A program made the translations under genes and the position numbers. A stretch of DNA of 64,000 nucleotides. Origin: Candidatus Harrisonbacteria bacterium. Lineage in GTDB: Bacteria; Patescibacteriota; Minisyncoccia; UBA6257; 1-14-0-10-44-23. The first letter of the stretch is position 1. The number at the start of each line of letters is the position of its first letter. The stretch spans positions 504,074-568,073 of the forward strand of contig JAHFLF010000001.1 in NCBI GenBank assembly GCA_023255625.1, in the 5' to 3' direction. The notes below the pieces were generated by a model that ran no database searches, was not told where the DNA came from, and saw only the letters and a list, made by a program, of their open reading frames with translations. Positions 7,484 through 52,118 of this stretch are shown here, piece after piece.

Positions 7484-7489
7484 TTTGTT

Positions 7490-18207: not shown

Positions 18208-18334
18208 CGTCCCACAAGATTGAATGCACGAAGGCACCCAATTGCGGAGGTCGGCTGCCCCTTTCAGCCCGCAATTGGAGCCAAAAAAAGCAGAAACCCC
18301 CGTGCTTATATTCAATCTTGTAGGACGCAAATAA
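18208..18334. ncRNA. Candidate structured RNA of unknown family inside the integrative element
   Basis: Nested perfect stems: GTCCCACAAGATTGAAT/ATTCAATCTTGTAGGAC (17 bp, one G.U) enclosing CCAATTGCGG/CCGCAATTGG (10 bp), plus an upstream GGGAC..GTCCC hairpin. Confidence 0.3.
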
Positions 18335-18343
18335 AGCATAGCA

Positions 18344-19141: not shown

Positions 19142-19320
19142 AACTTTGGAATATCATTAGTTGGTTCGTCGAGCCACGCTTTTTTAAGTGGGCGATAAAT
19201 TACATCGAGCGACGTAAGCAGGCTTACTGCCTGCTCCATAGCAAACTCATCGGAGATTATCTCTCCGCGTTCTTCTTCCCATATTCGTTTGAACTCACGT
19301 AACGCTTTTTCGCTCAACAT
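19138..19320 (-). CDS. Small hypothetical protein
   Basis: 60-aa ORF coupled to the downstream gene. Confidence 0.3.
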   Translation of the reverse strand: MLSEKALREFKRIWEEERGEIISDEFAMEQAVSLLTSLDVIYRPLKKAWLDEPTNDIPKL

Positions 19321-19741
19321 AAAAGCCTGCTTGTGGCTTGGCGGGTTTCCGTTGGCGCGGCGACCCGCAAAGCCATAAACAGGCTATGCGTAATTTTTGC
19401 CAACGAAATTATCGCCGAGAATTGTAATTCTCATAGTTGAGTACGCAGTAATACAAAAGGCTACCACCGCATCACACACAACTGTGAGATGAAATGGTAG
19501 CCTCTCAATGATTCCTACCCAGCGGGCTCCCAAACCCGATACGCGCGCTCCCTCTTGCGAGAGCGTAGGCTCGAAGATGTTTTACGTGCCATCGACGAGC
19601 GGGGATTTATTAAGTTTTACTAACAAGATAACTGTAGCGCATCGAAAAGACCACGGCAATGCAAAGGCAGTTAGCATCTGTTATCTATAGTTATTAAATG
19701 TATACTATTGCTAGAGCTACTTATCCACAGTTTCAACGAAT

Positions 19742-22700
19742 ATGCACGGATTACATCAGGGATACTCATATCAAGACCTTCTTGCGGCTTTTCTTATCTC
19801 AGAAAATTTACATCGAAAGGATTTTAAAATTGCCGTTGAGCTTAAAGAGTGCGCAGGAGATGTATTTGATGACATAGTTTTCATCGCAGATAGTAGAAAA
19901 ACTAAAGTTCAAGTTAAGCACTCTGCTTCAAATACAGCATTAAATAAAAATAGTTTTCAAAACACTTCTAGCGACTTGAATCTTGATGGACTAGCTAAGC
20001 CTTTCAAGGCAAAAATTGAAGCTGATTATATTATTGCAACCAATCGTAAGGTAACCCCAGACCCTTTTTTTAAGGAAATAAAAGCCCCCAAAGTCTTTCG
20101 ATTAAAGTATAAATCTTTTTTAATTACTAACTCAGCTCAGAATAAGAAGTTCTTGGAAAAACTTGTTGTTGAATCGTCTTTACCCGACGCCTCATTTGAT
20201 TTAAATAAGCCAGGAAATTTAGAAAAGGAATTGCTAGGTTCTCTGCGCTCGCATGTAGGTATTGGATATTATCCCAACAATCAAGTGTCCGAACGCGATG
20301 TGGCTGGTCGCCTTATTCTACTAGCTTCCCAACTAAGGGGTGCTAAGGAGCATAATTTTGTAACTAGAGAAGAAATTTTTAAACATATAAATTTAAATGT
20401 TGAGTTCGGTCATATCGCCCAAGATTTTCCATTTATATCAACGGAGTATCGCCTCTATAGAAGTGAGATTACAGAAAAGCTCAGGAGACTGCTCTTAAAA
20501 GATACTTATGTTGTTCTTGAAGGGCCTCCAGGTAGTGGCAAGTCTCATATATTTGACGACCTACATTCGAAAATTTTTTCAGAGAAGATTATCGCCGTAC
20601 GACATTTTTGCTATTTGGAACCGACAGACAAGTTTGCCCAAGAACGGATAGTAGCAGAAACTTTGTATGGAAATTTTCTCCATCAGCTTGAACGTGCTGA
20701 GCCAAAGATTTCTGAAGAACTTCGGCCATATTTTGCTGCTACAAAAGTAAATCTTGAGAAATTCCTTGAAAAATTATGTGCTTCAGGAAAACGATTAGTG
20801 CTAATGGTAGACGGCCTAGACCATCTCAACCGAGTAGTTGCCCAGAATAAGTTGCCGCCAAGCCTGGTCCACGATTTCGTCGCCGAATTACTTGATTTGA
20901 AATTGCCGAAAGGATGTTCTCTTTTTATTGCCTCACAACCTGGAAACGAAATAAAAGAGATTATTGAAGAAAAAGGTGTAAAAGTTGTAGAACTGCCACC
21001 TTGGAATGAGAAGATGGTTGCTGAGTTTATAAAAAAACATAATGAACGCTCGGCTGGAACAAGACAAATTCCGATGAGTGATGAGATTATAGATACTTTT
21101 ACTCAGAAAACTGAAGGAAACCCGCTATATCTTACATACGTGTTGAAAGAGATACTGGGGTCTGGAAACGAAAATGATATTATTGCTTTCCTCAAGACAC
21201 TACCTCAACTTAGTAGCGACTTAAATAATTATTATAAATATCTTACGCACGACAGTGATATAAACGATTTTGCAGTGATTCAGACATTTGCTCTACTTGA
21301 TTTCAGCGTCTCTGCTGATGAGCTGAAGGAAATGTTTCCACCTATTCAAAAACGAGCTTTACAGCAAACAATTGCGAAGATACAGCCAATTCTAAAACCA
21401 GGACTTGTTCAGGGTGGTTTGCGTATTTATCACGAAAGTTTTAGAAGATTTATTATCGAGCAGAGCCATAAAAATAAACAGAAAGACAGTGAGCTCTATA
21501 GACACATCACGCAGTGGTTAAGCAGGAATGGATTTTATGCGTCTCAGAGAGCATATAGATATTTGATTCCGTACCTTATTCGTTCTGATGAATACCAACA
21601 AGCATATGAACTGCTAGCAGCAAATTTTGTTGCCCAAAGTCTATATTTTTTCCATTCTCCAGAAAGTATTAAAAATAATTTAAACAGAATTGCTGAATTA
21701 TCTGCCAGAGGTGGGCGTTGGGATATCTACTGTAAGTGCGTAGAGCTCCATCGCGCACTCCATACATACACCTGGGAACGTCAAGAATCAATTGACGATA
21801 TATACCACCAAGCAGTCTTGGATGTTCTTGGTACAGAAATCTTTTGCGAAAGAATGGTATTCGACGGCAAGGCAGTTTTTTCGAAGACTAATGGCATCCT
21901 GCTGTGCCAAATGGCGCAGCATAAGGGGGGAAATCCGCCCTGGGACCACTACAGTGTCGCTGGCGTTTCAATGAACGTTAGAGATGACTCACAAATTCGT
22001 TATTTTCAAGAGGTTGAAAGTGCGCATTATTTGAATCTTTGCCGCAATTCATCTCTGAAGGGCGCGCTAAATACTTTGCAGATGATGATAATTAGAAACA
22101 AATATAAAGGTACAGAAATGCGCCAGATAAGGCTGCTTCTGCGCGAATTTGATTACCTATTCGGTGTTGCGAAACGTAGTAAAGAATTGACAGCTTTTTC
22201 CGTGGCAATGGTTAAGAAAGTGCCTTTGTATATTGTAGTTGCGGAGTATTTGTACAAAGAAGGAATGAAAAAAGAAGCCGCAATGTTAGCCACCTTTGCT
22301 GGTCAACAAACCAAGAATAAAAGTTATATTACTCAGGCATTGCTTTGCGGCGGGAAGCCCGCAAGTTCAACTCGCTTGCCAGATTTTAAAAAATTAACGA
22401 AACAAGTTTTTGAATTTGAGAACCTTTATGATAAAGAGCGTCCCATATTTAGTGAATGGTACAAAACCCTTCTAATACAAGCCCGTATCAATCCTGGGGT
22501 AGTACAGGATGCAAAAAAGCTAGTTGTAAGAATTGATGGTTGGTATAGAGCTTGGATAAAGTTCTTGTTTGAATTGTCTCTGCTGGAAGCTTCAGATATA
22601 AAAAATTCTGGTAAAGCAAAATGGTTGCAAGACGCCTTGTCTGACTTGAATAAATATACACATCCATTCAAAGGTAAGCCACGAGCAATGGACTTATACG

Positions 22701-24388
22701 GGATTCGAGAAGATAGTACCGATTCTTTCCGAAGAACTCTTAATCTTGCAGCCAAATTAAACAATTACCAATCAGTAATATCACTATTGGGTGAGATTAG
22801 TCGTCGCACAACTTCATATCTGCAGGGCTCAAGCTCTGGCCCATTGGAGGGGGAAACATTAAATTCTTTACTAAAAGATACTTATTCGGATTTGAACATT
22901 ACGAACCGAAAAGTGGTTTTAAAGTTGCTTAGACAGAACGTGTTAGAACGCGCAGGTACATCACAATACTATGACTCATCTGCTTTTGAGTATTTAAAGT
23001 TAGGAAGTGTTCTCGCTCTGGCGGGAAATAATACTGAAGCAAAAAAGCGTTTTTTCGAGGGTTGTGTACACGTTGCAGCGTATGGTCATCGTAAGGACGT
23101 TACAATTTACGAGATTATTGACCCCGTTCCTTTTATCGCCGAGAAGGACATTCCTTTTGCGCAACAAGCATTAAAGAAACTTTATCCATTAGTAGAGACA
23201 GTATGGAGATACACCGACGGTAAATCAACTCAATACAGTCTTACTTACTGGCTTGAAGCGCTTGTTGACTCCGACTCTGTGGTTGCAGCTCAAGCAATTA
23301 CTGAACTTGTTACGAAAGACCCCAAACGAGATTGGAGAGTAGAAAGAGGAACAAATTATTTCTGTGATAAATTACTCGGAACAAGCCTTCCAAGAGAGCT
23401 GATTGCAGAATTATACGAAACAATCAACCAGATGAGGGATGTAGATTATGATGTTACTGTAGGACTGAAGATAGTAGAGTCCCTTCTTGCAGATGGGAAA
23501 AAGGAATATGCTGAAAAGCTGTTTGGTAGTATGAGTCATAATCTATACTACGCTTTAATTTTTGATGGCTATTTTAGGGAGCGTGATAACTTTCCCAAGA
23601 TGATTGCCTTTGCTAAGAAGTTCAATCTGATTATTCCAGAAGATGAACGAATGCGATTCGAGGCTGAGATAGAAAAGAAACCTATGGAGTTGCCTGGCGG
23701 TGTTCCTACCGAAAGTAAACCAATACCCAAATTCAAACTTAAAGGTATATCTCTAGAGAAACTACGTAGGTTGATGGACGAAAATCCTTCAAGTTACTTC
23801 TTTGAAACTACCAACAGGAAAGAGTTTGCTGAAGCGTTATTTAATCTTGATAAACAACATCCAGGGAAAGTACAGGAATTAATTCTTTCAGCATTTCGAA
23901 ATGGATATTTCAGAGATGCAGACATCGAGAATCTAATTAAATTGCAAGAATTTTTTATTAAGAAAAAGAAACCTGAAATTGTCGCCTTCATAGGAGTGCT
24001 TTGTTTTGTGTATGCGCGCGGTGGAAATGGCTGGCACTCTCTCGCTGATAGTAAATACAACCACTTGCTCAAAGATGCATTTAGGCTTTCTAGGGCTACT
24101 GCGGAGGATGTTCTAGCGGTTGAGATGTCATATGTGTTCACAAAGCAAGGATACTATACTGGCCCAACGCGACATTTTATTGAGTTCTTTGCATTGAATT
24201 CTGGCGTAAAAATGGCTGAGCTAATATGGAGAGAAGCATTTGATGTAATCAAGTTTCGGTTGCCCACGCCCAAAGAGCTTGATGAAATCTTAAACGCAGA
24301 AACTCCGACTTTTAACTACAATTCATCGAAATCTCTTAATGCCTCGCTCAAAAAATTGATTATTGCTCGTAAGGCAATAACGGGTTAG
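19742..24388 (+). CDS. STAND-class P-loop NTPase, 1548 aa: putative nuclease-like effector N-domain, NTPase, long helical-repeat C-terminal region (antiviral Avs-like architecture)
   Basis: Walker A LEGPPGSGKSH (about 20521..20547) and Walker B LVLMVDGLDHL. About 230-aa N-terminal domain with a D...(Q/E)xK-like signature (FDDIVFIADSRKTKVQVKHS). About 1000 aa of C-terminal alpha-helical repeats. Very AT-rich (about 37% GC) compared with the flanks. Confidence 0.65.
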   Translation: MHGLHQGYSYQDLLAAFLISENLHRKDFKIAVELKECAGDVFDDIVFIADSRKTKVQVKHSASNTALNKNSFQNTSSDLNLDGLAKPFKAKIEADYIIATNRKVTPDPFFKEIKAPKVFRLKYKSFLITNSAQNKKFLEKLVVESSLPDASFDLNKPGNLEKELLGSLRSHVGIGYYPNNQVSERDVAGRLILLASQLRGAKEHNFVTREEIFKHINLNVEFGHIAQDFPFISTEYRLYRSEITEKLRRLLLKDTYVVLEGPPGSGKSHIFDDLHSKIFSEKIIAVRHFCYLEPTDKFAQERIVAETLYGNFLHQLERAEPKISEELRPYFAATKVNLEKFLEKLCASGKRLVLMVDGLDHLNRVVAQNKLPPSLVHDFVAELLDLKLPKGCSLFIASQPGNEIKEIIEEKGVKVVELPPWNEKMVAEFIKKHNERSAGTRQIPMSDEIIDTFTQKTEGNPLYLTYVLKEILGSGNENDIIAFLKTLPQLSSDLNNYYKYLTHDSDINDFAVIQTFALLDFSVSADELKEMFPPIQKRALQQTIAKIQPILKPGLVQGGLRIYHESFRRFIIEQSHKNKQKDSELYRHITQWLSRNGFYASQRAYRYLIPYLIRSDEYQQAYELLAANFVAQSLYFFHSPESIKNNLNRIAELSARGGRWDIYCKCVELHRALHTYTWERQESIDDIYHQAVLDVLGTEIFCERMVFDGKAVFSKTNGILLCQMAQHKGGNPPWDHYSVAGVSMNVRDDSQIRYFQEVESAHYLNLCRNSSLKGALNTLQMMIIRNKYKGTEMRQIRLLLREFDYLFGVAKRSKELTAFSVAMVKKVPLYIVVAEYLYKEGMKKEAAMLATFAGQQTKNKSYITQALLCGGKPASSTRLPDFKKLTKQVFEFENLYDKERPIFSEWYKTLLIQARINPGVVQDAKKLVVRIDGWYRAWIKFLFELSLLEASDIKNSGKAKWLQDALSDLNKYTHPFKGKPRAMDLYGIREDSTDSFRRTLNLAAKLNNYQSVISLLGEISRRTTSYLQGSSSGPLEGETLNSLLKDTYSDLNITNRKVVLKLLRQNVLERAGTSQYYDSSAFEYLKLGSVLALAGNNTEAKKRFFEGCVHVAAYGHRKDVTIYEIIDPVPFIAEKDIPFAQQALKKLYPLVETVWRYTDGKSTQYSLTYWLEALVDSDSVVAAQAITELVTKDPKRDWRVERGTNYFCDKLLGTSLPRELIAELYETINQMRDVDYDVTVGLKIVESLLADGKKEYAEKLFGSMSHNLYYALIFDGYFRERDNFPKMIAFAKKFNLIIPEDERMRFEAEIEKKPMELPGGVPTESKPIPKFKLKGISLEKLRRLMDENPSSYFFETTNRKEFAEALFNLDKQHPGKVQELILSAFRNGYFRDADIENLIKLQEFFIKKKKPEIVAFIGVLCFVYARGGNGWHSLADSKYNHLLKDAFRLSRATAEDVLAVEMSYVFTKQGYYTGPTRHFIEFFALNSGVKMAELIWREAFDVIKFRLPTPKELDEILNAETPTFNYNSSKSLNASLKKLIIARKAITG

Positions 24389-24727
24389 TTTTTCGTAAAA
24401 ATATCTCAACTTGAAGAGCCTGTCCCCGCCAAAAGCGCCAAGTTAAAAAGGGAAACTACCACCACCCGAAAATCGGAAAAAGGACAGACTATAGCTTTCT
24501 ATTGATAACTAGGGATAACTACTGCTAACATCGGATAGCTCTGGTTATGAATTGTTAGCTCATCAGTACGGGCCTGAAGAGATATGTATAGTCAGCACCT
24601 GTACGGATACGATTATATCTATATCAGTACTAATTGATTACAGCTACGTCTACTGATAGTCTTGGTATGAAGAAGTATTCGGGGTTGTTCTGGTAATAGG
24701 TTCTAACCTCGTCTACGACTCGGAGCC

Positions 24728-25429
24728 ATGGATGTACATTTTGATATTCACAAAATTTTTGATGTAATACTAAAAATAGGTTCAGTCGCAGGTTTACTAT
24801 CTTTGGTATTTAGCCTTAGAGATCAAATTAAAAAGCGTTCAAAATTTAAGTTTGATTTTCGTGGTTCTAGCGGGAAAATAGATACCAGGGACAATTTGGA
24901 TTTTTACGATATCGCATTTGATGGCTATGTAAAAAATCAAAGTAACGAGCAAAATTCAATAACTGAGATTTATTATCAGATTTGGGGTAATAAAGGCAGG
25001 ACAAAAACCTTAGCTAGCGGGATGGGCGCAGAAATTTTTGACGCTAGCGATAAGTCTAAAAAGATTTCCTTACCAATCCTTTTTGAAGCAAAAGAAGGAA
25101 AACATTTAATTATTCGATTTAGCGTTTGCCTTACCGGTACACATGTCAATGAATTAGTCCGGGCGCTCAAGCCAGTGCAGACCGGTTCTCCATTTATGCT
25201 TCCCAAGCATGAATTCTCTTTGTCATTCAAGGACGTGGATGAGGTTTTGTTCGATGATAAAGGTAAAATTAGAAGTCAAAGATTAATAGATCTTTGGTGG
25301 ACACTGCCAAACACTTTCAGCGCTTTAAAGGTTGGTAATCCATTGCCATATCTCTGGCATATGTTTAAAATATTTTTTGTATACTTTTTTTATAAGATAT
25401 TTTCAGTCATTCAACGAATTGGATTTTAA
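24728..25429 (+). CDS. Hypothetical membrane-anchored protein (AT-rich island cargo)
   Basis: 233-aa ORF with an N-terminal TM; same low GC as the STAND gene. Confidence 0.4.
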   Translation: MDVHFDIHKIFDVILKIGSVAGLLSLVFSLRDQIKKRSKFKFDFRGSSGKIDTRDNLDFYDIAFDGYVKNQSNEQNSITEIYYQIWGNKGRTKTLASGMGAEIFDASDKSKKISLPILFEAKEGKHLIIRFSVCLTGTHVNELVRALKPVQTGSPFMLPKHEFSLSFKDVDEVLFDDKGKIRSQRLIDLWWTLPNTFSALKVGNPLPYLWHMFKIFFVYFFYKIFSVIQRIGF

Positions 25430-25513
25430 ATAAGGGAGTACCAATTTTAGCTAGCATTAACCCGGGTTAATTTTGTACCTGCGGTGGGGGTGGAATTTTG
25501 CTATACTTGCGGT

Positions 25514-32813: not shown

Positions 32814-33452
32814 TTATCTTTTTTTGAAATCAGCCAGCAGTTTTTTCTGTTCCTTTGCGCTAAATAAATATTCAGTCGGATTTTTTGTGCTGCGCTGCGG
32901 GCTTGCCCGCCTCTGGCGGGCAATTTCATACAAAAAAAGTGCGGCGCTGACCGAGACATTGAAACTTTCCACAAAGCCGGCCATAGGCAGGTAAAGGAGT
33001 CGGTCAGCAAGTTTGGCCACTTCCGGAGATATACCGCGGTGTTCGTTGCCAACAACAAGCGCAATTTTTTTGGCAGTTAAATCTGCTCGCGATGCGTCCT
33101 CGGCGTCTTTATTTAAAATTGTCGCGCAGATCTGATATTTTTGTTTTTTGAGTTCCGTAAAGCATTCTTTAGTTGAACTGAAAATATGAAATGTTAGCCA
33201 CTTATTAGCTGATGATGAGGTAACTTTGCCGACGCGCCGCGGGTTGTAGCGTTTCTCCTGCGCGAAAATAAAATATATTTCCTGAATGCCCAGACCCTCG
33301 CAGGTACGCAATATCGCTGCCGCGTTGTGTGGGTCGTGGATGTCTTCAAGCACCAGGGCAAGCCCGGCCTGCCGGTTTTCTGCAACATTTTTGAATCTAG
33401 CGAGGCGTTTGGTACTTATCATGTGGGGGGATTGTAGCATATTTTCTAGCAT
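32814..33452 (-). CDS. TrmH/SpoU-family RNA 2'-O-methyltransferase
   Basis: SpoU motifs (LVLE.I.DP.N.GAI.RT; VVGNE..G.S.E....D..L.IPM.G...S.NVSV). Confidence 0.8.
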   Translation of the reverse strand: MLENMLQSPHMISTKRLARFKNVAENRQAGLALVLEDIHDPHNAAAILRTCEGLGIQEIYFIFAQEKRYNPRRVGKVTSSSANKWLTFHIFSSTKECFTELKKQKYQICATILNKDAEDASRADLTAKKIALVVGNEHRGISPEVAKLADRLLYLPMAGFVESFNVSVSAALFLYEIARQRRASPQRSTKNPTEYLFSAKEQKKLLADFKKR

Positions 33453-33471
33453 AGAGAATAGACCATTTTTT

Positions 33472-33517
33472 ACGATGTTATAGTAATTCTACGGTCGTAG
33501 AATTACTATAACATCGT
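33472..33517. promoter_or_regulatory. 46-bp near-perfect palindrome (22-nt arms) in the divergent trmH/eamA promoter region
   Basis: ACGATGTTATAGTAATTCTACG-GT-CGTAGAATTACTATAACATCGT seen directly. Confidence 0.5.
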
Positions 33518-33549
33518 GTTTTGCTGGCATTTATTCGCTTTTTGATGAT

Positions 33550-34461
33550 ATGCTTACTGTAATGAAATTCTCTGGACCATTTTTGATTTTTATTGCCGCT
33601 ATTCTCTGGGGTATTGACGGCATTCTGCGCCGCTCGCTGTATAGTCTGCCGCCGATTACGATTGTATTTCTTGAACACCTGATTGGCGCAATTATTCTGT
33701 TGCCGTTTTTCCTACGAATTTTTCGCAAAGAGCACCTGACAAAAAAGGAGTGGTGGGCGCTCGCCGTTATTGCGCTGTTTAGTGGCGTGCTTGGTACTTT
33801 GTTTTTTACGACCGCACTCGCGAAAATTCATTTTATTTCCTTCTCCGTTGTTTTTCTTTTGCAAAAGCTGCAGCCGATTTTTACGGTTGCCACGGCGGCG
33901 GTCGTGCTTAAAGAACGGCCGGCAAAGCAATATTGGATTTGGGCCGGGGTTGCCGTTGTTGCGGCATATTTTGTAACTTTCCCGAGCGGAGTCGTTAACC
34001 TTGCGACTGGCTCGGGGACTATTATTGCCGCCCTATTTGCCGTTGCTGCTGCGCTGTGTTGGGGATCAACCACGGCGTTTTCGCGGTACACGCTGCTCAA
34101 CCACTCCAACACATTTATCGTGGGGATGCGGTTTTTGCTCACGACCCTCATCGCAATTCCATTTCTCTTTGCACTTGGCGGGGGAGAGTCAGCGCTAACG
34201 ATTGGCACTGGGCAGATCTGGAAGCTGGTTGCAATAGCACTGACGAGCGGGATGGTGGCGCTGTGGATTTATTACCGCGGGCTAAAATCAACACCGGCTA
34301 GTGTTTCAACCATTGTTGAGCTTGCTTTTCCGCTGACCGCCGTGATTATTGATTATTTTTTGTACGACACCGCGCTCGCTGCGAGTCAGTACGCCGCCGC
34401 AGTTGTCTTGTTGTTTGCCGTGTATAAAGTTTCGCGGCTAAGTAGAAAGATAATAAACTAG
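33550..34461 (+). CDS. EamA/DMT-superfamily transporter
   Basis: 10 TM with duplicated EamA domains. Confidence 0.8.
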   Translation: MLTVMKFSGPFLIFIAAILWGIDGILRRSLYSLPPITIVFLEHLIGAIILLPFFLRIFRKEHLTKKEWWALAVIALFSGVLGTLFFTTALAKIHFISFSVVFLLQKLQPIFTVATAAVVLKERPAKQYWIWAGVAVVAAYFVTFPSGVVNLATGSGTIIAALFAVAAALCWGSTTAFSRYTLLNHSNTFIVGMRFLLTTLIAIPFLFALGGGESALTIGTGQIWKLVAIALTSGMVALWIYYRGLKSTPASVSTIVELAFPLTAVIIDYFLYDTALAASQYAAAVVLLFAVYKVSRLSRKIIN

Positions 34462-34494
34462 AAACAATAAGCAAGGAGATGGCAGAGAGCGGAT

Positions 34495-34530
34495 TTTGCG
34501 GGTTTTGGCGAGTACGCCAAAACCCGCAAA
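34495..34530 (+). terminator. Strong hairpin (16-bp perfect stem TTTGCGGGTTTTGGCG/CGCCAAAACCCGCAAA) after the transporter gene
   Basis: Seen directly; the downstream U-tract is loose. Confidence 0.5.
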
Positions 34531-34795
34531 TGATTCTAAAGATTTTTAATATTTCTAATTTTTCTTTCGGTCATTTTCACCATGTTGCAGCGTACTAGTA
34601 CACTGTAACGATAGTCAGAATGATATTTTTTTAGTACGAGCGAGGGCTTTGCCGCATCCCGAGCGAGCGCTTGCATTCTCTCTCTCTTTGTTGCAGGGTA
34701 AAGAAGAATGTGTCCTGGTAGGGCATGTTGAGCCGGCGGTACGGGTTCCGCTGGTTTTGTGTAAATTCAACCCGAGGGAAGAGGAGTATCTTGGC

Positions 34796-35566
34796 ATGCG
34801 CGTCGTAGACATGAGCCCCGCAGAACGACTCACGGTGGCGGCTGACTTCAAGCCCGCTGACTGGGGCGGGCGCAGGGGGGTCAGAGACAAGGTGGTAAGT
34901 CTGGCGCAATCGTTGCGAGGAACCGGCGTGACATTCAAGGTCAACACGATCCTGCGCGCGATCGGCTACGGCCTGCTCGAGGAGATCTCCGAGCAGGGGC
35001 TGGTGCCGTGGGCGGATCTCAAACTCTCCGACACCAAGGACACCGACCAGAGCGACATCGATTTCCTGGCGGAGGTCCAGGTGCCGAAGCTGCTGGTCAC
35101 GGTCAAGTGTGACAGCGGAGCAGGCACGCTCAGACACCTGGTGGCGAAGCTTCCGAGGCACATCGAACTCATCGGCATCACCGTCCTCTCGGACATGACG
35201 GAGGACGACTGCCAAGTCGTGTTCGGGCGGGAGATCCACATCGCCATCGACAACTTCTTCGCCATGGCCGGCGAGTGTGGCCTGGGCGGGATCGTCTGCT
35301 CGGGCAAGGACGCAGCCAAGGTCAACGCTGGCAGGACCAGGGTCTCGGACAAGTTCACGATCAACACCCCGAACATCCGGCCCGCCTGGGCCGAGGTCAA
35401 GGGCGACGGCCAGAACGTGAAGCGAGCAGCGACCATCGCGGAGGCACTCGCATACGCCGACCGGGTCGTCATCGGCCGGCCGATCACACAGCAGGAAGAC
35501 GTGCTCGGCGCGACAAGAAGATGTCTGGAAGAAGTCTACACCTGTTGCGGCGGCCTCCCGGACTAG
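34796..35566 (+). CDS. pyrF: Orotidine-5'-phosphate decarboxylase-like protein (high-GC island)
   Basis: FKVN..L....G..LLEEI...G..+.ADLKLSDTKDT (DxKxxD active-site motif) and the C-terminal VIGRPI motif; about 64% GC. Confidence 0.55.
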   Translation: MRVVDMSPAERLTVAADFKPADWGGRRGVRDKVVSLAQSLRGTGVTFKVNTILRAIGYGLLEEISEQGLVPWADLKLSDTKDTDQSDIDFLAEVQVPKLLVTVKCDSGAGTLRHLVAKLPRHIELIGITVLSDMTEDDCQVVFGREIHIAIDNFFAMAGECGLGGIVCSGKDAAKVNAGRTRVSDKFTINTPNIRPAWAEVKGDGQNVKRAATIAEALAYADRVVIGRPITQQEDVLGATRRCLEEVYTCCGGLPD

Positions 35567-35595
35567 GCAACAGAACAAGGAAGGAGAAGGGCAAC

Positions 35596-36393
35596 ATGGA
35601 CATGCGCAAGAGTATCGCCGATCTTCACAGTCTCGGCGATCTGCTCCGGATTCCGCCGGAGCGTTGCTACGACATCGCGTACGACAGCATGGGACTCACA
35701 TCTGAAGAGTTCCGGCACCTCCTCGAGCTGTGCGGGGAATTCTGGCAGCACGACGGCTACATGAACCGGCCGCATGCGAAGCTCACGAGTGGCAAGCACA
35801 GCGACGGATTCGTGAATGTGCTGGGAGGCCTCCGCTTCCCGGTGTTCGCGCAGCTTGTCGCCTGCCATCTGTCGGCCGTGATCGCAAGGTCGTGGAAGCC
35901 ACGGCAGGAGGGCCTTGTGGTCATCGGTTCGAGTTACGCGGCGCTTTGTCTGGCTCACGATGTGGGCCGGCTGCTGCGCGCGGAGTCGACCGGCTTCACG
36001 GAGAAGGGGCCGGAAGTCGAGGAGGGCGGCAAGAAGCGCAAGACCCAGGTGTGGGATCGCTTCGCGATCCGGCCCGGCAAGGTCGTGCTCAATGTGGAAG
36101 ACCTCGTGACGACTTCCAGCACCTGTGTGGAGGTGCGGCGGGGGATTCGCGAGGGCAACGCGAACAAGTTCGGGGTGGCCGAGCCCGTGCAGTTCGCACC
36201 TCTCTTGGCGACGGTGGTGAATCGCTCGCCGGACGAGAAGTTCGAGGGCGCGCCGATCTTCTGCGTGGCGCGTTACAACATGGGCCAGTGGACGCCCGAC
36301 GAGTGTCCGCTCTGTCAGCAGGGTTCGCCGCTCATCGAGCGGCCCAAGAAGCAGTGGAAGGAGCTCACCGGCAGAGACCTTCCGATTCTCTAG
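35596..36393 (+). CDS. pyrE: Type-I phosphoribosyltransferase, orotate-PRTase-like (high-GC island)
   Basis: AAGGAG ribosome-binding site; KLTSGKHSDGFVNV (flexible-loop region) and the PRPP-binding motif VLNVEDLVTTSST; N- and C-terminal extensions including CPLCQ. Confidence 0.5.
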   Translation: MDMRKSIADLHSLGDLLRIPPERCYDIAYDSMGLTSEEFRHLLELCGEFWQHDGYMNRPHAKLTSGKHSDGFVNVLGGLRFPVFAQLVACHLSAVIARSWKPRQEGLVVIGSSYAALCLAHDVGRLLRAESTGFTEKGPEVEEGGKKRKTQVWDRFAIRPGKVVLNVEDLVTTSSTCVEVRRGIREGNANKFGVAEPVQFAPLLATVVNRSPDEKFEGAPIFCVARYNMGQWTPDECPLCQQGSPLIERPKKQWKELTGRDLPIL

Positions 36394-36431
36394 CCCGCGC
36401 CGCCTGACTAGCGACGCGGGTATCAGCAAAT

Positions 36432-36495
36432 CAGGGGTGGTGCGCATGAACCTCGAGTTCAAAAGCACCGCCCCTGACGCATTTTTATTTTTGAG
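36432..36495 (+). terminator. Rho-independent terminator closing the high-GC pyrF/pyrE-like island
   Basis: CAGGGGTGGTGC/GCACCGCCCCTG stem followed by ATTTTTATTTTT. Confidence 0.7.
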
Positions 36496-36688
36496 CTTGA
36501 TACTGCTCGTACTGCTGCTCAATCAAGGTTCTTTTTTTGATCCAAAAATGATAGCCACTCCAGCCGAGTCCAAGAATGATTAAAAATCCAATTAGAACTT
36601 TTAAAAAATGCGGATGTTCAATACTTTTTCTAAATCCATCGCCGATATGAGACATTTCTCTAGTATACTCTAATCTTCCCACAAGCAA
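36485..36688 (-). CDS. Small membrane protein (tentative)
   Basis: 67-aa ORF with one TM. Confidence 0.25.
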   Translation of the reverse strand: MLVGRLEYTREMSHIGDGFRKSIEHPHFLKVLIGFLIILGLGWSGYHFWIKKRTLIEQQYEQYQAQK

Positions 36689-36778
36689 AAATTTGTCGGT
36701 TTAATCCTCTCAAGGTTTATTCGTCTTTACTAATACAAGGTCGAATACTTGTAATAACGACATATATACATTACTGCT

Positions 36779-37732
36779 ATGCCAATTATCTTAATTGTTG
36801 CAGTTCTGCTTACCGGTGGTGTGACGGTCGCTGCAGAAAATTCAGTGCCGGGTAATCTGCTGTATCCGGTGAAGATTGAGGTGAACGAATCAGTGCGCGG
36901 TGCGCTCACTCTGACCGCGCAGGGTAAGGCGCAGTGGGAGGCGGATCAGGCGATTCGTCGTCTAGAAGAGGCGGCGGAATTAAGTGCCGAGCAGAAATTA
37001 GACGCACAGGCAAAAGTTGATTTAGAGAATGCATTTGTGGTGCATGAAAAGGCGGCCGAGGATAGAATTGTTGCATTATCAGAAGATGGCGATAATGAAG
37101 CAGCGGCGGAGGTGAGTGCGGATTTTGAGGCGCGGCTTAAGGCAAATGCCGATATCTTGAATCGGCTTGCTCAAAAAAGCCAGCCAGATGCAGCGGGTAA
37201 TGTTATTCTTCGTGTTAATGCGGCTATCGGTGCGCTAGGCCAGTTGCGGCTGGCTAGTGAAGCTGCTGTTGGCGCGCAGCCGGATGTTGATGTTGCGGCG
37301 CAGGGTGCTGCAAAGGCGGCGCGCAATAAGCTAGATGAGGCCAAATGGTTTATTGATCGGCGATCTGCACAGGTTAGCGCCGAGGTTAAGACGAAGGCGT
37401 ATGCAAAGCTAGATGCGGCCGAGCATGCTTATGTCGCAGCACAGGCGAAGTTTGATGCTAAGGCGTATGCTGATGCGTTTATCGAGTTTCGTTCAGCAAG
37501 CCGGCTGGCGCAGGAGGCCCAGGAATTTATTTCTGGCGAGCAGGAGCTTGAGGTCAAGCTGGATTTTGACGCCCGCAGCGATTTTCAGTCAGATGTTCAG
37601 GAAGACAATGCTAACGACGACGATCGCGATGACGCCCGGGTTGATCTTTCTGCTGGTGCTGATGCGAAAGCAGATGATAATGCGTTAAATGGCAGGGCTG
37701 ATGGTCAGATGAAGATTGATCTCGGGTACTAA
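36779..37732 (+). CDS. Secreted DUF5667-like protein, Ala-rich with acidic C-terminal tail
   Basis: N-terminal PGNLLYPVKI...E..R..L motif characteristic of DUF5667. Confidence 0.55.
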   Translation: MPIILIVAVLLTGGVTVAAENSVPGNLLYPVKIEVNESVRGALTLTAQGKAQWEADQAIRRLEEAAELSAEQKLDAQAKVDLENAFVVHEKAAEDRIVALSEDGDNEAAAEVSADFEARLKANADILNRLAQKSQPDAAGNVILRVNAAIGALGQLRLASEAAVGAQPDVDVAAQGAAKAARNKLDEAKWFIDRRSAQVSAEVKTKAYAKLDAAEHAYVAAQAKFDAKAYADAFIEFRSASRLAQEAQEFISGEQELEVKLDFDARSDFQSDVQEDNANDDDRDDARVDLSAGADAKADDNALNGRADGQMKIDLGY

Positions 37733-46062: not shown

Positions 46063-46134
46063 TTGTCATTCTGACGTACGCGGAAGAATCTCGCCGAAAG
46101 ACGGGTCGAGATCCCTCGGCTTCGGGATGACAAC
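46063..46134. repeat. MITE-like palindromic element, intergenic copy upstream of uvrA
   Basis: TGTCATTCTGACGTACGCGGAAGAATCTCGCC-GAAAGAC-GGGTCGAGATCCCTCGGCTTCGGGATGACAA; imperfect inverted repeat about 72 nt. Confidence 0.7.
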
Positions 46135-46139: not shown

Positions 46140-48833
46140 ATGAAAAAACCAAACGAATTCATTAACAAAATTGTTATCAAGGGCGCGCGGGTTCACAACT
46201 TGAAGGATGTGAATTTGGAGTTGCCCAAAAATGAGCTGATTGTTTTTTCGGGGTTGTCGGGGAGTGGAAAAAGTTCGCTTGCATTTGATACGATTTTTGC
46301 GGAGGGGCAGCGCCGGTATGTTGAGTCTCTTTCGCCATATGCGCGGCAATTTTTGGGCCAGATGGAGAAGCCGGATGTGGACGAGATTACCGGGCTCTCA
46401 CCGGCCATTGCCATTGATCAAAAGGCGCACTCGCATAATCCGCGCTCAACCGTGGCAACGCTTACCGAAATTTATGATTACATGCGCGTATTGTTTGCCC
46501 GTGCTGGCGTGGCGTACTGCCCAACCTGTGGTCGCGCTATTCGTAAAATGGCGCCAGAAGAAATTGTAGACACTATTCGCGACGAGGCGGCGAAGCGTAA
46601 GGTGCAGCATGTCACGATCATGGCCTCAATGGTGCGTGGACGAAAAGGCGAGTACTTTCAACTGCTTCAGGATTTGTTTCGCGATGGATTTAACGAGGCG
46701 CGGATTGATGGCAAGACGGTTTCGCTGCACGAAAAAGTTGAGCTGAAGCGATATGGTGCGCACACGATTGATCTGGTTGTAGACAAGGTCATGCCCTCGG
46801 ACAAGTCTCGATTATTTGAGGCGGTGGAGACGGCGCTGACCAAAGGCAAGGGGTTAATTTCAGTTGCGTTTGGGGATCCGGCAACCGTTCGTCATTCTGA
46901 GCGCAGCGAAGAATCTCGCCGGAAAAAGGGGCGAGATCCTTCGGGCATACCTCAGGATGACAAAGGGGAGGATGTGCCGCAGTGGGAGCATGACCTTGAG
47001 GCGTCAAAAAAATTAGACAGCGAGATCCTTCGGCTTCAGGATGACAAGCAGGGAAACGAACAAATGTTTTCGGCGCACTGGAGCTGCCCGCACGACGGAT
47101 TTTCGTTTCCGGAGATTGAGCCGCGCCTGTTTTCATTCAACAGTCCATTTGGCGCGTGTGAGGAGTGCCATGGCATTGGGCATGATTTTTTTGACTCGGC
47201 AAAGGTCTGTGCAAGGTGTAATGGCGCGCGGCTGCGCCCCGAGGTACTATGCATCCGGCTCGGCGGTAAAAATATTGACGAGATTGTGTCGCTGACAATT
47301 GACGAGGCCTATGAATTTTTTGCGGACATTGAGCAACACTTGTCTACGAGCCAAAAAGTAATTGCCAAAAATGCTCTGAAAGAGATTACTGACCGTTTGG
47401 AATTTTTGCTGGAGGTTGGGCTGGATTATATAACGCTCAAGCGCGAGAGCGGCACCCTCTCTGGCGGCGAGGCGCAGCGTATTCGGCTGGCATCGCAGAT
47501 CGGCAGCAAACTTTCCGGCACGCTGTATGTTCTGGACGAACCAACGATTGGTTTGCACGAGCGCGACAATGAGCGGCTCATTAAGATTATGAAGGAGCTG
47601 CGCGACCTGGGCAATACGCTGATTGTGGTTGAGCATGACGAGCGAGTCATTCGCGAAAGCGATTATTTTGTGGATATTGGCCCGGGGCCGGGAGTGCACG
47701 GCGGGCAGATTGTGGCGGCCGGAGAGATGCCAGGAATTTTAAAAACTGCAGGCAAGGAATCTTTGACAGCGCGGTATTTGAGAGGTGAGGAGGAGATTGT
47801 AATTCCAAAAACACGGCGCGAGAAAGATAAGGGCTGGCTCAAGATTATTGGCGCAACTGCCAACAATATTCAAAATTTAAATGTAGAAATTCCGCTGGGA
47901 CGGCTGGTCTGCGTGACGGGTGTATCAGGTAGTGGGAAATCAACGCTGCTAGAGGAAGTTTTGTATCGCAACACGCAGAAGATGCTTGGCGGGTTTCAAA
48001 ATCTTGTAGGAGTGTCAAAAATACTCGGCGTTGAGTTTATCCGCCACATTATTGAGATTGACCAGTCGCCGATTGGCAAGACGCCGCGGAGCAACCCGGC
48101 AACTTACACCGGCGTGTTTGGCCCGATTCGTGATTTGTTTTCAATGCTTCCTGAAGCCCAGGAGCGGGCCTACGGCGCCGGCCGGTTTAGTTTTAATGTG
48201 CCTTCGGCGCGTGGCGGTGGGCGGTGTGAGGCCTGTGAAGGTGCTGGAGCCAAGATTATTGAGATGCACTTTTTGCCGGATGTTTTAGTAACCTGCGATG
48301 TCTGCCGCGGTAAGCGGTTTAATGCCGAGACACTGGAGGTGAAATATAAAAATAAAAGCATTTCACAGGTTTTAGACATGACGGTTGAGGAGGCGCTTAC
48401 GCACTTTGACGGCGTGTACCGCATTACCGATCACTTGCGGGTCATGAACGAAGTGGGACTTGGGTACATTAAGCTCGGCCAATCAGCGACAACGCTCTCG
48501 GGCGGTGAGGCCCAGCGCATTAAGCTGGCAAAAGAGCTCGCTCGGCCCATGGCACGCCATGATTTGTTTATTTTAGACGAGCCGACGACCGGACTGCATT
48601 TTGAAGATGTTAAGATGCTGCTGGAAGTTTTACAAAAGTTAGTTGAAAAGGGGAACACCGTGATTTTAATTGAGCACAATATGCATGTGATTAAAGTGGC
48701 GGATTATTTGATTGACATGGGGCCGGAGGCGGGCGTGCGTGGCGGCAAGGTGATTGCGGAGGGGACGCCGGAAGAAGTGGCGAGAAGTGCAAAATCAATC
48801 ACGGGGAAATATTTGAAAGAGTATTTGAGGTAG
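46140..48833 (+). CDS. uvrA: Excinuclease ABC subunit A
   Basis: Two ABC ATPase modules (GLSGSGKSSL; GVSGSGKSTL), zinc-finger Cys clusters, LSGGE signatures; contains a full and a half MITE-like element in-frame (46891..46973; 47020..47048). Confidence 0.9.
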   Translation: MKKPNEFINKIVIKGARVHNLKDVNLELPKNELIVFSGLSGSGKSSLAFDTIFAEGQRRYVESLSPYARQFLGQMEKPDVDEITGLSPAIAIDQKAHSHNPRSTVATLTEIYDYMRVLFARAGVAYCPTCGRAIRKMAPEEIVDTIRDEAAKRKVQHVTIMASMVRGRKGEYFQLLQDLFRDGFNEARIDGKTVSLHEKVELKRYGAHTIDLVVDKVMPSDKSRLFEAVETALTKGKGLISVAFGDPATVRHSERSEESRRKKGRDPSGIPQDDKGEDVPQWEHDLEASKKLDSEILRLQDDKQGNEQMFSAHWSCPHDGFSFPEIEPRLFSFNSPFGACEECHGIGHDFFDSAKVCARCNGARLRPEVLCIRLGGKNIDEIVSLTIDEAYEFFADIEQHLSTSQKVIAKNALKEITDRLEFLLEVGLDYITLKRESGTLSGGEAQRIRLASQIGSKLSGTLYVLDEPTIGLHERDNERLIKIMKELRDLGNTLIVVEHDERVIRESDYFVDIGPGPGVHGGQIVAAGEMPGILKTAGKESLTARYLRGEEEIVIPKTRREKDKGWLKIIGATANNIQNLNVEIPLGRLVCVTGVSGSGKSTLLEEVLYRNTQKMLGGFQNLVGVSKILGVEFIRHIIEIDQSPIGKTPRSNPATYTGVFGPIRDLFSMLPEAQERAYGAGRFSFNVPSARGGGRCEACEGAGAKIIEMHFLPDVLVTCDVCRGKRFNAETLEVKYKNKSISQVLDMTVEEALTHFDGVYRITDHLRVMNEVGLGYIKLGQSATTLSGGEAQRIKLAKELARPMARHDLFILDEPTTGLHFEDVKMLLEVLQKLVEKGNTVILIEHNMHVIKVADYLIDMGPEAGVRGGKVIAEGTPEEVARSAKSITGKYLKEYLR
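46891..46973. repeat. MITE-like palindromic element, full copy in-frame within uvrA (encodes ..RHSERSEESRRKKGRDPSGIPQDDK..)
   Basis: Near-identical to the uvrC copy at 51058..51130. Confidence 0.7.
47020..47048. repeat. Half-copy (right arm) of the MITE-like element in uvrA (encodes SEILRLQDDKQ)
   Basis: GCGAGATCCTTCGGCTTCAGGATGACAAG. Confidence 0.5.
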
Positions 48834-48968: not shown

Positions 48969-49082
48969 TCAATATTTAGTTTGATAATTTTATATAGGTG
49001 GAGTAGGGTAGAAAAATGACTGTGTGCAGAGTCCCTGCGCAGGTCAAGCCGGCTACGAGCTGGCGGAAGGAGAGAGGAAATC

Positions 49083-50210
49083 ATGGCGAGGACATTGTCT
49101 CGGTCGCACCTATCGCGATCGTCGCTCGGATCAAGGTGTTTCGGCGGGGGCGTCAGCATGCGTTTCTGCTGTACATCGGGTCGGCCCGGAGTGGTCAAGA
49201 AGGCGAAGCCGCCTGTGGAGGCCGCCCCTCCGAAGCCCACAATGACTTTCAGCCCGGAGCCTTCTGGCATTCTGTGCGGTGAGTGCGGCAAGCTGAAGGC
49301 GACTCGCCGAGTGGCGTGGGACGGCAAGTTCGTGGGTCGTATCTGCGAGCAGGTCGCCTGCGAATGGAAGGCCATCGAGGACGGCAGTTCCTGGAGGCCG
49401 CGGGTTCCGGCCCCGGCCAGGAAGCCGCAGCCGGCGGTATCCGCCCCGACGGCCAGCCGTGAAGACACGGAGCGGGCCGCTGCTGGGAGGTTCGTTCGTG
49501 AGGGCAGGAGACCCATGCGGCCGGGCAGCGTCGTTCAGCCGAGTTCCCGGGCGACGACGCCCGCACCAGCGGCTGGCATCGATTCCAGTCGGATCAAGGC
49601 GGGTGTGAGGGGATACATGGATGCGTCCAAGAGATGCGTCTGCGGAGGGCATGCGTTCTACGACATCTCTCTCGACGGCGTCCTCATCGGGCAGGCGTGC
49701 TGGGATTCCGCATGCCACAGGAAGTTGGCCACGCAGCATGAGGCAGGGAGCAGCGTGCCGACCGCTGCTGCGACGCCTGCTGTCGCTGACCGGTGGTTCA
49801 CGAAGCCGTTGTCGGCCCGCTCGAGTGGTCTCAAGTGTGCAGTCTGCGGAGCACTCGCGCACTACGAGCTTCTACGCAATGATCGGCCAGTCGGTCTTCT
49901 GTGCTGGCTGGACATCTGCGAGACGACGCTCAAGGAGAGCATCGCCTCCAACAAGCCGCAGGCGGTATCCACCGCGAGCGTCCAGCCCGCGCCCGTGGAC
50001 ATGCGGCATTCGGTGGGGACAGCCGGTTTGTGCAACTTCTGTGGCCGTAGGCACTGGCTGGATATGTCGTTCTACGCGCCTAACGGCGAACTGCTCGGTA
50101 CTAGCTGCATCGAACCTGCCTGCGTCGCCAATGCGAAGGCGAGGGCCCGTCTGGGCGAGAGCTGGACCCAGAAGCAGCCGGCGGCTTCTGGAGGAGGCGG
50201 GCCCCACTAG
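49083..50210 (+). CDS. High-GC protein with four tandem Cys-ribbon-like repeats (CxxCG-x15-19-C-x4-6-C) separated by Pro/Ala-rich linkers
   Basis: Repeats CGECGK..GRICEQVAC / CVCGGH..GQACWDSAC / CAVCGA..GLLCWLDIC / CNFCGR..GTSCIEPAC; GGAGAGAGG ribosome-binding site; about 65% GC; the exact start is uncertain. Confidence 0.5.
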   Translation: MARTLSRSHLSRSSLGSRCFGGGVSMRFCCTSGRPGVVKKAKPPVEAAPPKPTMTFSPEPSGILCGECGKLKATRRVAWDGKFVGRICEQVACEWKAIEDGSSWRPRVPAPARKPQPAVSAPTASREDTERAAAGRFVREGRRPMRPGSVVQPSSRATTPAPAAGIDSSRIKAGVRGYMDASKRCVCGGHAFYDISLDGVLIGQACWDSACHRKLATQHEAGSSVPTAAATPAVADRWFTKPLSARSSGLKCAVCGALAHYELLRNDRPVGLLCWLDICETTLKESIASNKPQAVSTASVQPAPVDMRHSVGTAGLCNFCGRRHWLDMSFYAPNGELLGTSCIEPACVANAKARARLGESWTQKQPAASGGGGPH

Positions 50211-50266
50211 GGGCTCACACTCGCTGGAGTTCCGTGGGATTCCAGCTACAACTACGGGGCGCGCTC

Positions 50267-50639: not shown

Positions 50640-52118
50640 ATGAACTTGGCGATTTATGAAAAATTAAAGAAAATTAGTAAAAAATTTCCGAACAAGCCAG
50701 GGGTTTATTTCTGGCGAAATAAAAAAGGTGCGCCGCTGTACATTGGCCGGGCGGGGAGTTTAAAAAAGCGGATTGCGAATTACTTCGTCACGCCGAAGCT
50801 CGGCGAAGGCGGATCTAGATTAGACCCGCGGATTCGCGAGATGACGCAGGTGGCGCATTCGCTGGATTTTGAAGAGACGGATTCTTTGCTTGAGGCGATT
50901 GTGCTTGAAGCGAATTTAATCAAGCAATACTGGCCCAAATACAATATCTTGGAAAAGGACGGCAAGTCGTTCATTTATCTAGTTATCACCGACGAAGAAT
51001 TTCCAAGACTGCTTCTTGTCCGCGGCCGTGAGTTGGATAAATATTCCGTTAGCTTACGTCATTCTGAGCGCAGCGAAGAATCTCGCCTCAAAACGGAGCG
51101 AGATCCTTCGGGCGTACCTCAGGATGACAAACAAAAAAAGAAAAGGAAGCAGTACGGTACTTTGGGCGTATTTGGACCGTACCAAAGTTATTATCTATTG
51201 CGCAAAGCTTTAGAGATTGTCCGCAAAATTTTCCCGTATTCAAATTGTCGTCCCCCTGACTATTCTCTAATTCGCGCGAATAAGCGAATAGTCAGTAAGC
51301 CCTGCTTTCACTATCAGATCGGCTTATGCCCGGGCGTGTGCGTTGGCGCGATTGATGCAAAGACATACCGTAATAATATCCGTAATTTAATATTGTTTTT
51401 CCGCGGTGAGAAAAAGCAACTGCTCAAAAAATTGCAGAAAGAAGAAGCTTTACCCTCCAAAACTTTTGGGAAAAGTTTGGGAGGGCGAGACGCTATCTTG
51501 GCGCTTAAGCAGGTTCGGGACACGGCGCTTTTGGCTGATTCTGATGTTTTGCTGCGTGGTAATCAGCTCACTGACCGACGGATTGAGGGGTATGACATCA
51601 GCCACTCCGGTGGCAAACAGCCGGTGGGGGCAATGGTGGTGTTTGAGAATGGCGAGCCGGCGCGCGATCAGTATAGGTTGTTTAATATCCGTGGCCCTGC
51701 ATCCTCTTCCGCTATCAACTATAAACTATCAACTATAAACTCCTCCGATGATTTGGCCATGTTGCAGGAAGTTTTGGGGCGGCGGCTCAAACATTCCGAG
51801 TGGCCGTTGCCGCAGATTGTGTTTGTTGACGGTGGCGTAAATCAGGTACGGCGGGTGAATGCCGTGCTTAAGCGGCATAATTTGACATTGCCGGTCGTTG
51901 GATTAGGAAAAGCTGGCCAGCATGCCGCATCGTCGGCCGGGCAGGACAAGTTGGTCGTAGCAAATGCAAAAAAAACCGGTAAAGAATTAATAATTGCGTC
52001 ACGGAATCTATTTCAGCAAGTGCGTAACGAAGCGCACCGGTTTGCAATCAGTGCGCAGCGCCGGCGCGGCAAAAATACTTTCTTGCCGCGCCGACTGCCA
52101 CCTATCTATCCGTCTTAA
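50640..52118 (+). CDS. uvrC: Excinuclease ABC subunit C (short form; ends after the RNase-H-like endonuclease domain, with no C-terminal helix-hairpin-helix (HhH) tail)
   Basis: GIY-YIG N-domain (PGVYFW...PLYIGRAG.LKKR...YF), the UvrBC-interaction region, the C-terminal endonuclease motif EAHRFAI; contains an in-frame MITE-like element (51058..51130) and a palindrome (51257..51298). Confidence 0.85.
   Translation: MNLAIYEKLKKISKKFPNKPGVYFWRNKKGAPLYIGRAGSLKKRIANYFVTPKLGEGGSRLDPRIREMTQVAHSLDFEETDSLLEAIVLEANLIKQYWPKYNILEKDGKSFIYLVITDEEFPRLLLVRGRELDKYSVSLRHSERSEESRLKTERDPSGVPQDDKQKKKRKQYGTLGVFGPYQSYYLLRKALEIVRKIFPYSNCRPPDYSLIRANKRIVSKPCFHYQIGLCPGVCVGAIDAKTYRNNIRNLILFFRGEKKQLLKKLQKEEALPSKTFGKSLGGRDAILALKQVRDTALLADSDVLLRGNQLTDRRIEGYDISHSGGKQPVGAMVVFENGEPARDQYRLFNIRGPASSSAINYKLSTINSSDDLAMLQEVLGRRLKHSEWPLPQIVFVDGGVNQVRRVNAVLKRHNLTLPVVGLGKAGQHAASSAGQDKLVVANAKKTGKELIIASRNLFQQVRNEAHRFAISAQRRRGKNTFLPRRLPPIYPS
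51058..51130. repeat. MITE-like palindromic element, full copy in-frame within uvrC (encodes ..RHSERSEESRLKTERDPSGVPQDDK..)
   Basis: GTCATTCTGAGCGCAGCGAAGAATCTCGCC-TCAAAACGGA-GCGAGATCCTTCGGGCGTACCTCAGGATGACAA. Confidence 0.7.
51257..51298. repeat. 42-bp imperfect palindrome inside uvrC (CTGACTATTC...ATTCGCGCGAAT...GAATAGTCAG)
   Basis: Seen directly; its core is shared with the promoter-region copy. Confidence 0.45.

Follow-up and report, generated by a model that had tools for sequence, protein, structure and literature searches.

A 64,000-nt stretch of DNA from a Candidatus Harrisonbacteria bacterium (assembly GCA_023255625.1, contig JAHFLF010000001.1, positions 504,074 to 568,073; hereafter the window, to which the composition contrasts and absences of pyr genes reported below refer) carries an island of high GC content with two adjacent genes. 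We consider it likely, on the basis of sequence comparison and structure models, that this island is an operon of pyrF and a divergent Thermus-type pyrE that would make uridine 5'-monophosphate (UMP) from orotate and that was acquired from a donor of high GC content. The phosphoribosyltransferase (PRTase) encoded by the second gene would convert orotate and phosphoribosyl pyrophosphate (PRPP) to orotidine 5'-monophosphate (OMP) and pyrophosphate, and the decarboxylase encoded by the first gene would convert OMP to UMP and CO2. A Harrisonbacteria-like genome can probably make UMP from orotate by means of a laterally acquired two-gene operon.

Predicted identity of the two enzymes

The first gene is predicted, from its sequence and its modeled fold, to be an OMP decarboxylase (PyrF). 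Its product scores 67.3 bits against the Pfam OMPdecase model PF00215 (cut-off 27), and all ten matches of a PDB sequence search are OMP decarboxylases. Comparison with E. coli PyrF reveals that D17, K48, D74-x-K76-x-x-D79, T83, S132, Q206 and G227-R228 are kept, and these catalytic and ligand-binding positions show little or no variation among 23-27 aligned sequences. The AlphaFold model has a predicted local distance difference test (pLDDT) score of 94.1, and its 50 best PDB folds are without exception OMP decarboxylases, with the 8dop, 8doq and 8ek7 chains counted as such via the PDB sequence search. The aligned residues and the fold matches bear out the PyrF-like identity put forward in a preliminary description of this DNA, which had named the D-K-D-K constellation as a point to check.

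Could the protein instead act as a 3-keto-L-gulonate-6-phosphate decarboxylase (KGPDC) or a hexulose-phosphate synthase (HPS)? The TIM-barrel model is closest to OMP decarboxylases rather than to either of these, and no KGPDC (UlaD/SgbH) or HPS (HxlA) model matched the protein in NCBIfam at E ≤ 1; a canonical PyrF used as a control (P0034) does give weak cross-matches to KGPDC and HPS models. The NCBIfam matches of the first gene are PyrF models alone (95, 62 and 57 bits), bar a negligible argininosuccinate-synthase match (E 0.15, 10.8 bits). The protein belongs to a clade of ~20 proteins, mostly metagenomic, at 39-46% identity, from which it departs by DT in place of DI, LSD in place of LTS and DGQN in place of DDQN. 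The second of these changes was considered as a replacement of the base-binding Ser by Asp and was rejected, since the alignment puts the base-binding Thr/Ser directly after Leu, where it is kept as Ser132; the yeast and M. thermautotrophicus enzymes also served to place this position.

The second gene encodes, as judged from profile comparison and its structure model, a clear homologue of Thermus-type PyrE and thus a type-I PRTase. Alignment of its family with bona fide pyrE_Therm by hhalign gives a probability of 99.9% (E 5.4e-32, 188 columns). The protein contains the motifs PHAKLTSGKHS, FTEK, VEDLVTTSST (the PRPP loop), NRS and CPLC, and residues K137, R155, E168, T172, T173, T176, R210, C237 and C240 are invariant in the family. 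The best PDB folds for the structure model (pLDDT 91) are 4PAW (H. pylori HP1257), 4OHC, 4RV4 and human UMP synthase (UMPS), all of them orotate PRTases, such that Burkholderia, B. anthracis and human UMPS are the sources ranked behind HP1257, and adenine and hypoxanthine PRTases rank below the orotate enzymes. Best models and best folds are those of orotate PRTases and not of purine or uracil PRTases, in agreement with the PyrE-like identity first proposed. Every motif quoted at that time (FKVN, DLKLSDTKDT, VIGRPI, VLNVEDLVTTSST and CPLCQQG) is found in the two proteins. Terminal extensions had also been claimed for the PRTase: the N-terminal one, of ~40 residues, is present, whereas the CPLC segment is a conserved motif of Thermus-type PyrE rather than a C-terminal extension.

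Composition and layout of the island

The GC content is 62.8% in 34636-36480 compared with 47.4% in the rest of the window (z = 3.7 relative to all other segments of 1845 nt) and reaches 63.5% in the two-gene span 34796-36393, which matches the earlier report of a 1.8-kb island of about 64% GC between AT-richer genes. The GC profile rises from ~0.40-0.45 to 0.55-0.67 between ~34640 and 36480 and falls to 0.30-0.42 beyond, with an abrupt shift at both edges (left ~34636-34650; right ~36450-36490), and the only comparable peak elsewhere in the window lies at ~48.5-50.3 kb. At codon positions 1/2/3 the GC content is 0.63/0.44/0.85 in the first gene and 0.64/0.44/0.83 in the second, whereas GC content at the third position (GC3) is 0.47-0.53 in the six neighboring genes and averages 0.50 (standard deviation 0.09) in the other open reading frames (ORFs) of the window. 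For this reason, the anomaly resides in synonymous positions and not in amino-acid composition.

Coordinates of the island and its immediate surroundings are collected in the table. Three observations agree on the gene starts: the spacing of the ribosome-binding sites, the N-termini of homologues and the gene lengths called independently on a Logan contig. The ribosome-binding sites, predicted earlier to be of the AAGGAG type, are in place for both genes.

Table. Features of the two-gene island and its left neighbor (positions within the window; dG and z from folding)
Feature	Position	Strand	Description
EamA-family transporter gene	33550-34461		upstream neighbor of the island
Left hairpin	34495..34530	+	perfect 16-bp stem, dG -30.6, z -5.6
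GC-richer leader	34636..34795	+	~55% GC, left edge of the island
Ribosome-binding site GAGGAG	34781-34786	+	9 nt before the ATG of the first gene
pyrF-like gene	34796..35566	+	256 aa, predicted OMP decarboxylase, GC3 0.85
Ribosome-binding site AAGGAG	35581..35586	+	9 nt before the ATG of the second gene, within the 29-nt intergenic spacer
Divergent Thermus-type pyrE-like gene	35596..36393	+	265 aa, predicted type-I PRTase, GC3 0.83
Right hairpin with UUUUUAUUUUU	36431..36495	+	GC-rich 13-bp stem (36431-36478), z -5.1

The island was initially described as bounded by strong hairpin terminators. Folding confirms both hairpins. The right hairpin, followed by UUUUUAUUUUU, probably serves the operon as its intrinsic terminator, and it marks the island's right edge. 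The left hairpin lies just 3' of the stop of the EamA-family transporter gene, has host-like GC content and is not directly followed by a U-tract; we place it on the host side of the left junction, outside the acquired DNA. A simple terminator scan missed both, the left one for want of a T-run next to the stem and the right one because of its large loop. A sigma-70 promoter scan of 33400-37000 returned no site, and an Rfam search of the leader and of the whole window returned no RNA match. As to the claim that all six reading frames are open across the island, none is free of stops (3-24 per frame over 1.6 kb), although stops are depleted relative to the flanks (7-30), and spurious ORFs of 173-319 codons do occur there.

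Metabolic role and origin of the pair

The metabolic placement of the second gene draws on the gene context of its family. An exhaustive search recovered 827 representative clusters (E ≤ 1e-3), and a scan of one genome per species recovered 472 relatives, of which the best 80 underlie the locus counts given here. These loci come nearly all from metagenome-assembled genomes of Patescibacteria (Paceibacteria, Jorgensen-, Uhr-, Nealson-, Magasanik-, Gribaldo- and Harrisonbacteria, and Kazan). The PRTase gene adjoins a pyrF gene of type 1 or type 2 in ~55 of the 80 loci; the neighbor is a type-1 OMPdecase in ~40 and a type-2 pyrF (TIGR02127, 207 bits against a cut-off of 111) in a further 15. At least 11 of the 80 have pyrD nearby, and four Nealsonbacteria-like loci present the operon dihydroorotase-like/PyrD/PyrF/PRTase. 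Moreover, four natural metagenomic fusions of 466-486 residues join an OMPdecase domain to a PRTase of this family, one of which is labeled only "orotidine-5'-phosphate decarboxylase" in IMG. Gene order, operon partners and fusions alike point to the PyrE step as the place of this family. In the loci whose neighbors were scanned, neither pyrB nor carAB was found within 6 kb of the PRTase gene; the large neighbors taken as CarB or PyrB candidates proved on inspection to encode NrdD, an intein-containing GyrB and Cas9.

Several loci with a PRTase of this family have peculiarities of their own. The Nealsonbacteria-like pyrD-pyrF-PRTase operons are headed by a short dihydroorotase-like protein of 313-351 residues (L053, 3309-4250; also L054, L057 and L061) that has no Pfam match and scores 156 bits against NCBIfam pyrC_multi (cut-off 279); possibly it represents a shortened form of PyrC confined to this group. 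On one Patescibacteria contig (L005, 6984-9369) two OMPdecase-family genes adjoin the PRTase gene, and the divergently oriented copy (6984-7745, minus strand) reads D-T-E-L-K-S at the catalytic D-x-K-x-x-D site, a change that may have left it inactive or repurposed. Genes of mobile elements also accompany the pyr module in other genomes: L056 has one for an IS200-like transposase (4127-4978) between its pyrD and pyrF genes, and a LAGLIDADG endonuclease is encoded near the pair in L001 (12064-12501).

Where would the orotate come from? It could be imported from the host or the environment, or it could be made by genes elsewhere in the genome. We lean somewhat toward salvage. As noted in the preliminary description, the window holds no other de novo pyrimidine genes: pyrB, pyrC, pyrD and carAB are not found in the 34 kb upstream or the 28 kb downstream of the pair. 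Genomes of the Candidate Phyla Radiation (CPR, Patescibacteria) are reported generally to lack complete pyrimidine pathways (PMC8407418, PMC11974145), and together these two observations make orotate salvage plausible. The literature searched contained no description of the PRTase family or of an orotate-salvage role in CPR bacteria. One gene of the window could be mistaken for a pyrimidine-pathway gene, namely that for a NodU/CmcH-type carbamoyltransferase of 614 residues (7692-9536, 25 kb upstream of the pair), which is unrelated to aspartate carbamoyltransferase.

An alternative hypothesis is that the pair is functional but, rather than being a stand-alone module for orotate salvage, supplies the final steps of a de novo pathway, full or late-stage, with at least pyrD, and perhaps pyrC, pyrB and carAB, located elsewhere on the contig of at least 602 kb. 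Such an arrangement would be in keeping with the pyrD-pyrF-PRTase and pyrC-like-pyrD-pyrF-PRTase operons in which other Patescibacteria carry the same PRTase family, and the gene inventory covers 64 kb of the genome. However, the absence of these genes from both flanks of the pair, the absence of pyrB and carAB from the other loci scanned and the reported incompleteness of CPR pyrimidine pathways leave it, in our view, possible though not likely. A more radical hypothesis, raised in the preliminary description, is that of a repurposed pair in which the PRTase uses another base and the decarboxylase acts on the product to give a modified or non-canonical nucleotide. The distance of the PRTase from curated PyrE models, its W-x-H...PH motif, its N-terminal helical extension, its altered PRPP loop and the two insertions that it has in common with a single relative (P0002) would all accommodate this. 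Against it, the segments of the base-binding region are kept as in bona fide Thermus-type PyrE (LTSG-x-HS and the Arg of (D/N/H)-R-S/T), the decarboxylase retains every OMP-binding residue, and family members share operons with the orotate-forming PyrD and dihydroorotase-like genes. No support for repurposing was found, and we regard it as very improbable.

Horizontal acquisition, as was suggested at the outset, fits the jump in GC3 from ~0.50 to 0.84, and none of 65 metagenomic loci with a related EamA gene (49-69% identity) carries the pair within 7 kb. The donor would have been of high GC content and would have carried the same Patescibacteria-type PRTase family, and the transfer would be recent enough for the codon composition not yet to have drifted to that of the host. 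The window encodes functions usual for bacteria with small genomes (NusG, GatB, Tmk, UvrABC, a DEAD-box helicase, SpoU and DUF5667), and a Harrisonbacteria-like host is indicated by GatB, which is 59-71% identical to Candidatus Harrisonbacteria proteins; other relatives of it reach up to 84%. The closest PRTase (P0002, 47% identity, with two insertions common to both) is encoded in a pair of 65% GC with a type-2 pyrF, beside a gene of 50% GC. In a neighbor-joining tree without support values, the window PRTase groups with this protein and not with the one Harrisonbacteria PRTase sampled (L043). The two window proteins also differ in their affinities: the nearest clade of the OMPdecase has PRTase partners of the more canonical type (L001, L085 and L070), and that of the PRTase has OMPdecase partners of other types. 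This combination of clades was not found in any other sampled locus.

A recurrent excess of GC3 accompanies the module in other genomes as well. Among 61 loci with enough neighbors, which are phylogenetically non-independent and were compared with crude ORF calls, the pyrF/PRTase module has a higher GC3 than the genes around it in 77% (median excess +0.056), and z exceeds 2 in 30% of loci compared with 5% for leave-one-out control genes (Mann-Whitney p = 6e-9). One locus (L051) deviates the other way, by -0.26. These data suggest that the module moves between Patescibacteria genomes more often than its neighbors do. They also admit a different explanation, in which the genes are native and vertically inherited and the high GC content has another cause such as selection on codon use, since an excess seen in so many loci could be a gene-intrinsic bias and since the island has neither flanking mobility genes nor att-like repeats. 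However, the excess in the window (+0.28 to +0.34) is far above the median, the excess in L051 is of opposite sign, the GC content changes abruptly at both edges, and both the separation from L043 in the unsupported tree and the unmatched pairing of clades are at odds with vertical descent. Native origin is therefore judged improbable.

The island could also be an assembly chimera with a co-occurring high-GC organism, which the preliminary description had named as a way in which it might be refuted. The abrupt composition change at both edges would be expected of a chimera, and one ENA assembly of this population is interrupted within the island, at 35876. The contig concerned (L090) starts within the PRTase gene and continues across the right junction through host DNA with 100% identity over 10.5 kb, and an independent Logan contig of 9.2 kb carries SpoU-EamA-OMPdecase-PRTase-DUF5667 and the following genes with identical proteins, spanning both junctions. 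Given also the clean operon layout with its own terminator, a chimera would be extremely surprising. The MEGAHIT break at 35876 could reflect an effect of coverage or GC content, or strain heterogeneity for the island.

Returning to the proposed pyrF and Thermus-type pyrE operon of foreign origin, a number of observations weigh against it. Both proteins fall well short of the NCBIfam equivalog cut-offs, and the second also misses the Pfam threshold: the first gene scores 95.1 against 193 for NF001273 and 62.4 against 92.3 for TIGR01740, and the second scores 11 bits against 26 for PF00156 (Pribosyltran) and 50.5 bits against 150.25 for pyrE_Therm (TIGR01367), its best NCBIfam model, to which bona fide proteins from L082 and L084 score 214 and 192 bits. 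The fold similarity of the second protein to orotate PRTases is moderate, with template modeling (TM) scores of 0.55-0.72, and in its PRPP loop TTSST replaces the TTGGS of bona fide PyrE. With respect to transfer, the best homologues of both proteins are 46-47% identical and none exceeds 47%, so that the donor cannot be named. No syntenic empty site was found in the 65 EamA-anchored loci, where synteny is too eroded to define one; there is no tRNA gene in the window and no integrase at the island, the nearest recombinase being 17 kb off; and flanking repeats are at chance level (D7, of 13 nt, and I1, an AT-rich, 73%-complementary inverted repeat). Homology, active-site residues, fold, operon structure and the gene context of the family nevertheless converge on the last two steps from orotate to UMP, and the substrates and activities would be those of the two reactions set out above.

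Beyond this locus, the PRTase and OMPdecase might constitute a self-contained "UMP from orotate" cassette that is repeatedly exchanged among CPR bacteria, usually from higher- to lower-GC genomes, and that sustains pyrimidine-auxotrophic episymbionts on an intermediate leaked by the host, the PRTase being an unrecognized PyrE subfamily missed by Pfam and NCBIfam thresholds. We offer this broader hypothesis tentatively and hold it to be rather doubtful as a whole. An inability to make nucleotides is usually ascribed to CPR genomes (PMC8407418, PMC11974145); if the hypothesis holds, their pyrimidine capacity is systematically under-called. The family members checked have no Pfam annotation and no name in public collections, and pipelines that rely on such models would for this reason probably score the PyrE step as missing. 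The biochemistry is that of the textbook and the function is ordinary; of modest further interest are a large Patescibacteria PyrE-like family missed by curated models and the recurrent compositional foreignness of the pyrF/pyrE module. The value of these observations lies in better annotation and in a testable idea of which metabolites episymbionts take from their hosts.

Other features of the window and comparison with known systems

Three further features of the window deserve mention. A palindromic element of 75 nt occurs in two copies (46890-46964 and 51057-51131) that are 93% identical and fold at ~-39 kcal/mol, with a partial third copy at 46083-46119. It lies in frame in uvrA and uvrC and adds the peptide RHSERSEESR..K..RDPSG.PQDDK to each protein. 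It is similar to the Rickettsia palindromic elements and other mobile palindromes that insert in frame, and none of the fetched loci contains it. Between uvrA and uvrC there is a second high-GC island (49000-50250, GC 0.63-0.70, GC3 ~0.77), which is probably another foreign insertion and whose ORF at 49083-50210 (plus strand, 375 residues) has no Pfam match and contains four CxxC...C..xxC, zinc-ribbon-like repeats. Finally, the low-GC stretch 16179-25500 (0.39) encodes a NACHT-domain NTPase of 1548 residues (19742-24388), with the gene for a large serine recombinase (16179-17792, minus strand) ~2 kb away, and this stretch may be a mobile element with a defence-type STAND NTPase.

How does the pair compare with characterized enzymes? 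The OMPdecase resembles type-1 PyrF (PF00215; NF001273/TIGR01740) in its (beta/alpha)8 barrel, with target-normalized TM scores of 0.87-0.89 to the enzymes of C. jejuni, K. pneumoniae and E. coli, and in its conserved residues, which are the Asp, the Lys and the D-x-K-x-x-D motif together with those that bind ribose (Thr), the base (Ser/Thr and Gln) and phosphate (G-R). Its clade differs by the segment ERLIVAADFKP at the N-terminus and by two extra residues in the GDDQN loop. With Thermus-type PyrE (TIGR01367; 4PAW), the PRTase has in common the type-I core, H-x-x-LTSG-x-HS, the F-x-E-K/R loop, the V-E-D/E-hydrophobic-TT PRPP loop, (D/N/H)-R-S/T, the C-terminal E-CPLC-x-x-G and a position adjacent to pyrF. 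Unlike that enzyme, it has an N-terminal extension of ~40 residues that forms three helices, a 7-residue W-x-H-x-G...P insertion ahead of LTSG, a family PRPP loop of the form TTxxT instead of TTGGS, and a longer C-terminal tail, RPK-x-NW-x-x-LTGR; two further insertions are found only in the window protein and in P0002. Both activities are combined in the OMP decarboxylase-orotate PRTase type of UMP synthase (NF004034; Leishmania donovani UMPS, PDB 3QW4), in which the decarboxylase comes first as it does in the gene order of the window, although the window encodes them in two genes with 29 nt between them rather than as a fusion.

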